Shown here: in pieces, positions 2,519 to 3,964 of the stretch
Layout: each line of letters starts with the position of its first letter
How positions within the stretch are numbered: the first letter of the stretch is position 1
IMG/VR virus record: IMGVR_UViG_3300044491_000733
Location: 1-25,701 of that record
Reading direction: 5' to 3' (one strand)
DNA length: 25,701 nucleotides
Source of the DNA: a virus
Taxonomy: Duplodnaviria > Caudoviricetes
Made by a program: the position numbers and the translations under genes
The notes under the pieces: generated by a model
What the model saw: the letters and a program-made list of their open reading frames with translations, nothing else
Databases searched by the model: none
Told to the model about the DNA's origin: nothing

Positions 2519-2890
2519 ATGAAACATAAACATTTAATAGTACGAGCAGAAGTAAGTAATCCTCCAATATACGAACAGACTATTACTGATTGGGCTTCTA
2601 ATTTAATTAGAGACATTGGTATGAAGATTATGATGGGACCTTATGTTAAGTATTGTGATATGGAAGGTAACAAAGGATTTACTTGTGTTACTATTATCGA
2701 AACATCACATGTAGCAATACACATATGGGACGAACAATCTCCAAAATTAATGCAATTAGATGTCTATACTTGTGGAGAGTTAGACACACGAATAGTATTT
2801 GATGCGTTAGATAAGTTTGATCCAGTAAAGATTGATTTCAAATATTTGGACAGAGAAAACGAATTTATTCAAGTACTAGATACTAAATAA
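2519..2890 (+). CDS. speD: S-adenosylmethionine decarboxylase proenzyme family (pyruvoyl-dependent decarboxylase; substrate uncertain)
   Basis: 123 aa with the class 1B AdoMetDC pattern: N-terminal KHLI, GFTCVTIIETSHVAIHIWDE (cf. G.S...L.ESHISIHTWPE) and LDVYTCG. Confidence 0.85.
   Translation: MKHKHLIVRAEVSNPPIYEQTITDWASNLIRDIGMKIMMGPYVKYCDMEGNKGFTCVTIIETSHVAIHIWDEQSPKLMQLDVYTCGELDTRIVFDALDKFDPVKIDFKYLDRENEFIQVLDTK
2883..2889 (+). promoter_or_regulatory. T4 late-promoter-like box (CTAAATA) just upstream of the glutamine riboswitch
   Basis: TAAATA core overlapping the end of speD. The expected start at about 2895-2897 is right at the 5' end of the aptamer. Confidence 0.5.
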
Positions 2891-2896
2891 TAATAC

Positions 2897-2946
2897 AACG
2901 TTCAGCCGATATAGGCCGGAAGTAAGCGCAATGCTGAAGGAACGCA
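2897..2946 (+). ncRNA. Glutamine riboswitch (glnA RNA motif, glutamine-I class)
   Basis: CGTTC(2899-2903)-A-GCC-gatata-GGC-CGGAAGTA-AGC-gcaat-GCT-GAAG-GAACG(2940-2944)C. This gives P1 CGUUC/GAACG, P2 GCC/GGC, the conserved GGAAGUA...GAA E-loop and P3 AGC/GCU, matching the glnA three-way junction consensus. Confidence 0.88.
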
Positions 2947-2970
2947 CTTAACTTTAACAAGGAGAGTGTA

Positions 2971-3162
2971 ATGAACAGATACGATCACCTACTTAAATCA
3001 TACCGCGAGCAAAAAATGAGAGAACGCAAGGAAAAGATCCTTATGAAAACTCGTAGCGAAGTAAACGTGTATGGAAATGGTACAAGTGGATATACTGTTA
3101 CAAACGGACCAAATAGTGGTAAAGTTTTGAAACATATATCTGTTAATCATAATAATAATTAA
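2971..3162 (+). CDS. Small basic hypothetical protein (63 aa) downstream of the glutamine riboswitch
   Basis: Strong AAGGAG RBS at 2959-2964; 10 K/R in the first 28 residues; directly follows the aptamer. Confidence 0.75.
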   Translation: MNRYDHLLKSYREQKMRERKEKILMKTRSEVNVYGNGTSGYTVTNGPNSGKVLKHISVNHNNN

Positions 3163-3179: not shown

Positions 3180-3209
3180 GGTTGACTTTATATCTAAAGA
3201 TGTTATATT
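3180..3209 (+). promoter_or_regulatory. Sigma70-type promoter driving the orphan structured RNA
   Basis: TTGACT (3182-3187), 16 nt, TATATT (3204-3209), with an extended -10 TG at 3201-3202 and an A/T-rich upstream tract. Predicted start about 3216. Confidence 0.7.
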
Positions 3210-3215
3210 AAGTAC

Positions 3216-3432
3216 ATAAGCAACAGAAGAGTAATTAACTTTTGTTTATAGTGCAAGGAAGAGGCCTTTACCAGAAGGGTCTAACTTGACTGTCCAGGGG
3301 TGGTACCCAGGCTTGGTAGTAGAAATACGCTGAGTCACATCGCACTAACCCGCGGGGACAGGTTGTACGGTTTTGAAATGGTATTTCGGTCCGTACTTGT
3401 AGGTGTACCCAAGTCCTACCTATTTTGCTTAT
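3216..3432 (+). ncRNA. Putative ~215-nt structured non-coding RNA, family unassigned
   Basis: No ORF in the track; 52% GC over 3251-3420 (88/170 by hand count) against AT-rich flanks. The ends pair (ATAAGCAA 3216-3223 / TTGCTTAT 3425-3432), there are at least five internal helices, and it is bounded by a promoter and a terminator. Confidence 0.75.
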
Positions 3433-3437
3433 ACTTT

Positions 3438-3462
3438 AAAAAGACGCTTCGGCGTCTTTTTT
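3438..3462 (+). terminator. Rho-independent terminator closing the ncRNA
   Basis: AAAAAGACGC-TTCG-GCGTCTTTTT-T: perfect stem with C(UUCG)G tetraloop and U-tract. Confidence 0.92.
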
Positions 3463-3494
3463 CTTGACTTAAAATCCTTTATATTGTATTGATG

Positions 3495-3501: not shown

Positions 3502-3589
3502 CTTGTGTCATAGAGAGAACCTCTAAGATGAGGACTTATGCGGTACCCACCGCGTATTACCTAGAACGTAACATAAAAGGAGAAAACAA

Positions 3590-3964
3590 ATGGGACGACC
3601 TATTAATAAAAGAAACTTTGGTGCCTTAGCAGATGGTACAAATATTACAGTAAATGTAAAAGTTGGTGCTAACAGTGCTACAGATCAAGGTGTGATTTTA
3701 TCACAAAGATCAGTAAATAAATTCAACTGCGACGATGATAAAACACTTGGAGGAAACACAGGTGTTTGTACACTTGTTGCTAAAGCAAGTGGATCGCTAG
3801 CCGCTGACGAAATGTCAATTAACGGTATCATTACAGCTGACGGTTCGAGTGTATGGGTAACAAAGTTATATAATAGAACATGCAGAGACGAAAACAACAA
3901 TAGATATACTTGGAGCATCGCAGATGATTCTTCAGTATCTTATCTAGAACTTGTTGCTATCTAA
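3590..3964 (+). CDS. Hypothetical protein, probable virion component (124 aa)
   Basis: AAGGAG RBS, late-type promoter, beta-rich composition, first gene of the structural cluster. Confidence 0.7.
   Translation: MGRPINKRNFGALADGTNITVNVKVGANSATDQGVILSQRSVNKFNCDDDKTLGGNTGVCTLVAKASGSLAADEMSINGIITADGSSVWVTKLYNRTCRDENNNRYTWSIADDSSVSYLELVAI

Follow-up and report, generated by a model that had tools for sequence, protein, structure and literature searches.

Our preferred reading of this DNA, to which we give slightly less than an even chance, is that a peptide belonging to the nitrogen regulon of SAR11 bacteria, and likely an inhibitor of glutamine synthetase (GS), has been captured by a probable SAR11 phage and placed under a riboswitch that turns on with glutamine. 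The window, by which we mean the whole 25.7-kb virus record analysed, carries in order a major capsid gene, a speD-like gene, the heptamer CTAAATA, an aptamer, the sequence AAGGAG and an open reading frame (ORF) for a 63-aa protein. At low glutamine the 3' end of the aptamer would pair over the ribosome-binding site (RBS) and hide it; at high glutamine the ligand-bound fold would free the RBS, and the 63-aa protein would be made. The gene would likely have been taken from SAR11 hosts, and its phage-borne product would likely bind and damp the host GS. This logic would mirror that of cyanobacterial gifB, which is made at plentiful nitrogen and inhibits GS, with a different protein. The protein is the new element, as glutamine riboswitches on phages have already been published (PMC9004378, PMC9964418).

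An earlier note on this DNA had read the region as a phage-borne nitrogen sensor, built from a glnA aptamer and a helix across the RBS, and its coordinates for CTAAATA, the aptamer, GCACTT, GAGTGT, the RBS and the ORF were all borne out. When the suggested Rfam search was run with cmscan, positions 2897-2948 (plus strand) matched the glutamine-I (glnA) riboswitch aptamer RF01739 with 55.9 bits, above the gathering score of 35 (E 5.2e-10), over the full model (positions 1-53). The predicted helices are P1 (2899-2903/2940-2944), P2 (2905-2908/2914-2917) and P3 (2926-2928/2934-2936). The available text of PMC6698751 names C1, G22, C58 and G59 as ligand-site bases, and that of PMC6212724 describes the long-range G23-C60 pair. 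The window has the three-way junction with its E-loop and all six of these bases, as expected of an RF01739 member (C1=C2899, G22=G2918, G23=G2919, C58=C2943, G59=G2944 and C60=C2945).

Close relatives of the 63-aa protein are encoded at 30 viral loci, 29 of which have sufficient upstream DNA. The aptamer, a TAAATA 7-9 nt ahead of it, the GCACTT/GAGTGT pair and the ORF are kept in all 29, which collapse to 12 distinct upstream sequences, and every one of the 20 related viral loci that were scanned contains RF01739. Across 32 leaders, all five counted P2/P3 pairs vary on both sides; the invariance of P1 in loci found by pattern is partly built in by the search pattern. A pattern scan of viral contigs found at least 120 aptamer stretches in 7 of 64 parts, for an estimated total of about 1100. 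Taken as sequence evidence, these results establish a real glutamine riboswitch of known kind on a phage, for which glutamine binding is predicted.

The proposal that GCACUU (2944-2949) pairs with GAGUGU (2964-2969) to form a translational expression platform was supported by folding, by a swap test and by covariation. The predicted anti-RBS hairpin (2944-2969, plus strand) includes an inner stem (2952-2954/2959-2961) over the AAGGAG of the RBS (2959-2964, plus strand). Its helix takes not only G2944 but also C2945, the partner in the G23-C60 pair, and both are needed for the bound fold; the leader position is thus occupied by a platform that excludes the bound fold, a further mark of RF01739 membership. 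Without ligand, the printed pairs of 2944-2949 with 2964-2969, including G2944-U2969 and C2945-G2968, have probabilities of 0.87-0.99, and P1 pairs have at most 0.04. We mimicked the bound state by forcing P1 and blocking C2945, which costs the hairpin two pairs and weakens it at both temperatures modelled (37 C, -8.1 to -3.5 kcal/mol; 20 C, -12.1 to -6.5 kcal/mol). The inner pair C2947-G2966 then has a probability of 0.33 at 37 C, against 0.89 at 20 C; the model leaves no larger a share of the SD unpaired than before (0.40 to 0.30-0.38). Given this residual helix at 20 C and the lack of a rise in SD exposure, the model shows weakening of the hairpin and not its full opening.

In the swap test, which used viral leaders with an SD and a start 15-40 nt downstream, a 6-bp helix was present in 41 of 93 distinct leaders, against 22.0 +/- 2.4 (maximum 32) in 10,000 swaps. 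At least five anti-RBS pairs can form in 55 of the 93 leaders and fewer than five in the other 38; the helix begins at both ligand-fold bases in 55 of 93. With one row kept per tail type, the native duplex was still stronger (-4.0 vs -3.0 +/- 0.26). In a hand-picked set of 32 rows (the window, 26 of 39 candidates of the common tail types and five further close loci), the helix is 98.4% paired and C-G/U-A exchange occurs in 13 rows; as these rows are related to each other, shuffle counts cannot be read as probabilities. Klahn et al. postulate pairing of C60 to the RBS for gifB (PMC6212724), and the viral leaders provide covariation support for an anti-RBS mechanism that until now was only postulated for that gene. 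We consider it very probable that the aptamer and anti-RBS helix constitute a translational switch whose predicted direction is ON.

CTAAATA (2883-2889, plus strand) is a candidate phage late promoter, from which late transcription of the unit would proceed. TAAATA occurs 16 times on the plus strand of the window, eight of them intergenic or at gene ends. The metatranscriptome runs consist of assembled contigs holding at most 0.25 of the words, from which start, strand and level are not readable. Two structured RNAs that the earlier note had left unmentioned lie further downstream, and both exceed their gathering scores: a manA RNA (3224-3429, plus strand; RF01745, 57.1 bits vs 55.2) and a freshwater-2 RNA (3519-3592, plus strand; RF02980, 64.3 bits vs 49.9), the leader of the next gene (124 aa). 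The manA RNA, a type already known from cyanophages (PMC2864571), is a unit separate from the aptamer and the 63-aa ORF. A promoter scan placed a sigma70-like site of its own before it (3182-3209), and a hairpin and T-run follow it (3431-3470), so the manA region (3224-3463) could here be an independent RNA instead of a leader. RNA contigs related to this region are deep in one run, in terms of contig depth only.

The aptamer is found ahead of many other small genes. Among 94 ORF-proximal viral loci (ORF of at least 26 aa), 91 encode products of at most 65 aa and 93 encode net basic ones; 16 belong to the 63-aa family, 15 carry YRG and 63 are others. As these ORFs are mostly short and net basic, an aptamer followed by a short basic peptide is a common viral cassette. 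At least five further families of short basic peptides, all unclassified, lie behind glutamine-I aptamers in viral contigs (loci L031-L150). One aptamer-controlled YRG (DUF4278-like) peptide (L207:868-1047) has a YRGAEY repeat identical to six residues of alphaproteobacterial PII, as read from loci L317-L341. Judged by these residues, DUF4278 peptides might mimic the PII segment that we take to be the T-loop.

Glutamine riboswitches have been reported in Methylophilales phage Melnitz, Pelagibacter phage Mosig and a Prochlorococcus phage (PMC9004378) and in cyanophage S-CREM1 (PMC9964418). Melnitz, Mosig and S-CREM1 resemble the phage described here in that RF01739 sits on a marine phage, and S-CREM1 also has manA. 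In the available text of those papers, however, the aptamer is tied to tmRNA or lysis timing or its target is left open, and neither an anti-RBS helix nor a SAR11 protein family is described.

The 63-aa protein (2971-3162, plus strand; ATG at 2971) has a pI of 10.1, 12 K/R residues and a predicted N-terminal helix followed by a conserved tail (EVxxNGNGTSGY..GxNxGK). An AlphaFold model has a confident helix at residues 5-27, a weakly modelled tail and a mean pLDDT of 71.8. The protein matched phrog_32989 (E 3.1e-9) and has 1806 relatives at 90% clustering and 111 at 50%; Pfam and NCBIfam contain no family for it, and the ESM Atlas returned unnamed viral clusters, under 0.9. We rejected an EF-hand-like match to a PDB sequence (E 0.039) as chance, because the loop residues vary in the SAR11 copies. 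The family is common in pelagiphages and chromosomal in SAR11. In HTVC008M an unannotated member, split over two frames and with no aptamer, lies between gp025 and gp024 (L452:1416-1586). RF01739 was not found near the family gene in four cultured podophage loci, HTVC008M or 20 SAR11 loci, and five other aptamer-bearing marine genomes gave no match to the family. A search of the open literature, including the available text of PMC2704228 and PMC12753301 (most subscription papers were outside its scope), returned no description of the family or of the glnA-adjacent SAR11 gene. On the strength of these comparisons, the 63-aa protein apparently defines an undescribed SAR11/pelagiphage family tied to nitrogen control.

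The host of the phage is likely SAR11. The earlier note drew its parallels from cyanobacteria, but the genomic context points to SAR11 instead. Pelagibacter phages account for 11 of 12 phage matches to the speD product and for 14 of 15 records in a search for family members; E-values in the latter were weak, and the family profile confirmed six of those 14 loci at E 1e-15 or better. The capsid protein has its best matches, at 66-70% identity, in jumbo phages of Proteobacteria such as PA5oct and BF, for which we assume the label "Rak2-like" applies. These matches led us to reject an origin from T4-like cyanophages. A tree of 66 columns was too weak to give the direction of transfer.

Chromosomal relatives provide the link to nitrogen metabolism. 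Of 151 Pelagibacterales genomes, 84 each gave a single match to the family profile, whereas 300 other Alphaproteobacteria gave no match. In the 83 genomes used for linkage counts (one unpublished genome was left out), the small gene is convergent, tail-to-tail, with type I glnA in 64, non-adjacent in 18 and without a glnA hit in one. Tail-to-tail placement means that it forms no operon with glnA; in loci L297-L299 the small gene follows iscA, and its stop codon and that of glnA lie 2-7 nt apart. The 64 genomes are probably one clade and would therefore represent one long-kept arrangement rather than 64 events. None of them has a PII hit, compared with 14 of the other 19, such that 69 of the 83 family-bearing genomes lack a PII hit and 14 have one. 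When genomes were scanned for the aptamer, the whole unit turned up in one cellular genome, on the chromosome of a Pelagibacteraceae MAG, where the gene lies behind RF01739 among housekeeping genes. Upstream of the small gene in loci L279-L292, which come from the SAR11 order, is a shared leader (about 75 nt 5' of the gene) with neither RF01739 nor any other Rfam match. In it a hairpin loop and a tract further downstream show covariation (CTAC/GTAG, TCGC/GCGA) that may reflect a pseudoknot, and an anti-RBS-like hairpin follows, making this leader a candidate new nitrogen-related riboswitch.

The small gene also shares a promoter element with glnA. In SAR11, glnA and amtB rise under nitrogen limitation, NtrX has been proposed as the nitrogen regulator and a canonical PII network is lacking, according to the available text of PMC3870248. 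Among the promoters examined (five further amt loci were left out), all 16 of glnA and all three of amtB (loci L428-L443 and L446-L448) contain a palindrome, TATGY-N7-RCATR, at -89 to -106; it is a candidate binding site for the SAR11 nitrogen regulator. An alternative definition, TGCA-N9-TGCA, was discarded, as it misfits these promoters. A matrix of the palindrome scored at least 5 bits in 16 of 17 small-gene leaders, compared with 6 of 140 other genes, a background that excludes genes divergent from glnA that share its site. The palindrome is absent from the phage leader (4.5 bits). Twelve of the 16 small-gene sites lie at -35 to -37, just before a -10-like hexamer and the start, which we read as a repressor-like position, as opposed to the activator-like position at glnA and amtB. 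The shared palindrome and its positions would fit a nitrogen regulator that controls the small gene and glnA in opposite directions, and we infer that the host copy would be repressed under nitrogen starvation and made when nitrogen is plentiful. Such host logic agrees with the glutamine-ON switch of the phage copy.

These observations could also describe a nitrogen-regulon effector that stands in for PII by acting on another host target, whether an ammonium transporter, NtrX or an enzyme of the arginine pathway. The palindrome is common to the small gene, glnA and amtB, the gene is enriched in genomes with no PII hit, SAR11 has no canonical PII network, and a target in arginine supply would in addition account for the SpeD fusions described below. 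We nevertheless regard another target as unlikely: the chromosomal neighbour in 64 of 83 genomes is glnA and not amtB, Pfam detects no PII likeness and the PII pattern is confounded by phylogeny.

The case for GS as the target had been made in the earlier note through a loose resemblance to the inactivating factor IF7, with IF7/IF17 and DUF4278 named for comparison. That resemblance did not extend to family membership. Neither NF052599 nor DUF4278 (PF14105) matched the protein, whereas control loci did match (L187, L237 and L200 for NF052599; L158 for PF14105). With hhalign, the 63-aa family aligned to IF7-like peptides without significance (E 0.05-0.07; probabilities about 1%, namely 0.8% and 1.1%). 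Only one of three invariant IF7-like arginines is kept, these columns reading H6, R19 and K26 in the window protein and varying across the family. Single arginine losses abolish IF7 binding (PMC6316151); that the invariant columns correspond to the essential arginines is our assumption, as the available text of that paper gives no IF7 numbers. A gap-free alignment does exist between residues 3-33 and 14 IF7-like peptides encoded behind aptamers of cyanobacteria, with 36-38% identity over 28-29 columns and the same register in 21 of 22 rows. Against the IF7-like profile the window protein scores 28.7, compared with a maximum of 20.9 in 358 basic decoys (z 5.4 vs shuffles), but a score of at least 20 is reached by just 14 of 60 wider-family rows, and glnA-adjacent rows score 0-4.7. 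IF7 (gifA; NF052599) shares a short basic helix with the 63-aa protein, but has no counterpart of the Gly-rich tail, the best conserved part of the 63-aa family. The protein is not an IF7, as judged by these alignments, though by analogy it may work like one.

A similar balance holds for the Synechocystis gifB leader (IF17; PMC6212724), which has an aptamer of the same family, a postulated pairing of C60 to the RBS, a small basic product and production that would likewise take place under plentiful nitrogen. Here, by contrast, the unit is on a phage, the product has a Gly-rich tail and matches neither the DUF4278 nor the IF7 model, and the protein family is SAR11-specific among the genomes searched. 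The riboswitch and translational platform of the earlier reading stood and membership of the IF7 family did not; the idea of GS as target gains support instead from SAR11 relatives that lie beside glnA and share its palindrome. From this genomic evidence we judge the chance that GS is the target to be nearly, though not quite, even. Host transcripts of glnA, gltBD and amt go up with two pelagiphages (PMC12753301), an effect not easily squared with a GS inhibitor made by a phage; one speculative fit would be a late, glutamine-gated saving of ATP and glutamate.

The gene upstream of the unit raises a different explanation. In the window it encodes a SpeD-like pyruvoyl decarboxylase of 123 aa (2519-2890, plus strand; PF02675, E 1.7e-13), 49% identical to the arginine decarboxylase of HTVC201P, and its stop codon (2888-2890) is overlapped by CTAAATA. 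Other phages have the small domain joined to an enzyme of this type: 443 longer proteins match it, PF02675 is present in 120 of 120 among the matches listed, a fused query retrieved 80 viral loci of which 67 have the fusion, and speD is close to several of the free copies. The 63-aa protein might accordingly work with, or regulate, the SpeD-like arginine/ornithine decarboxylase of the phage, its free gene a detached tail, with glutamine turning on polyamine synthesis. This we consider improbable. Common as fusions are, the linkage is not obligate: only 3 of 30 close loci have speD immediately before the unit (four of the 30 with less than 1 kb of upstream DNA), and the gene 5' of the unit is otherwise a capsid gene or others, making the speD-like gene an upstream neighbour and no fixed part of the aptamer/ORF unit. 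The aptamer pattern occurs in none of the 80 fusion-query loci, and one relative has speD and the aptamer followed by a different 144-nt stretch. On SAR11 chromosomes the small gene is free-standing and not linked to the chromosomal speD, and in 11 of the 83 genomes speD gave no hit. Furthermore, the HTVC201P enzyme, at 122 aa, is active without such a tail (PMC9992855). The fusion looks secondary, though its recurrence suggests a shared nitrogen role.

Less probable still is a role in translation, in which the 63-aa protein would bind RNA or ribosomes and adjust protein synthesis to the available nitrogen. Such a role would suit the basic composition of the protein, and a KOW domain was the top PDB row in a Foldseek search with the first AlphaFold model (E 2.7); to our eye the Gly-rich tail loosely resembles half a KOW motif. 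However, that search gave nothing at E 0.001 or better in viral and PDB libraries, each Pfam family matched was hit by at most 4 of 60 members, with no RNA-binding family at a useful E-value, and the linkage to glnA would go unexplained.

Glutamine-I aptamers, some single and some in tandem, also stand before glnA, amt, glnII and gltB/D-like genes of marine Alpha- and Gammaproteobacteria (L161, L181, L165, L172 and similar cellular loci), and RF01739 has been noted in SAR86 (PMC12379486). The response direction of the aptamer before cellular glnA and amt genes is called unknown in PMC6212724; the tails of these cellular aptamers differ from the ON platform, and they probably act as OFF switches. 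That the phage aptamer binds glutamine without switching its gene on, as a constitutive hairpin, an OFF switch or a glutamine-binding RNA in itself, is very improbable, for although the hairpin persists in part in the bound mimic at 20 C and repression would be expected of the cellular aptamers, the viral helix starts at the two ligand-fold bases and covaries, and the cellular glnA and amt leaders have other, longer tails.

The question of how the ocean's most abundant bacterium, SAR11, regulates GS in the absence of PII is still open (PMC3870248). The preferred reading names a candidate for this control, a protein of 56-70 aa encoded beside glnA and borne by phages under a metabolite sensor. 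A broader reading, which we hold to be possible though rather doubtful, is that the family is the missing post-translational brake on GS in mostly PII-less SAR11: a non-cyanobacterial inactivating factor, tail-to-tail with glnA and repressed by the nitrogen regulator, that diverse pelagiphages have captured, some under a glutamine riboswitch and others fused to arginine decarboxylase, steering the nitrogen and ATP use of the infected host. Should GS prove not to be the target, an ordinary phage riboswitch and an uncharacterised peptide would remain. GS control by inhibitory proteins has been called unique to cyanobacteria among major bacterial groups (PMC6212724); if our reading is true, it would extend to Alphaproteobacteria and to viruses.
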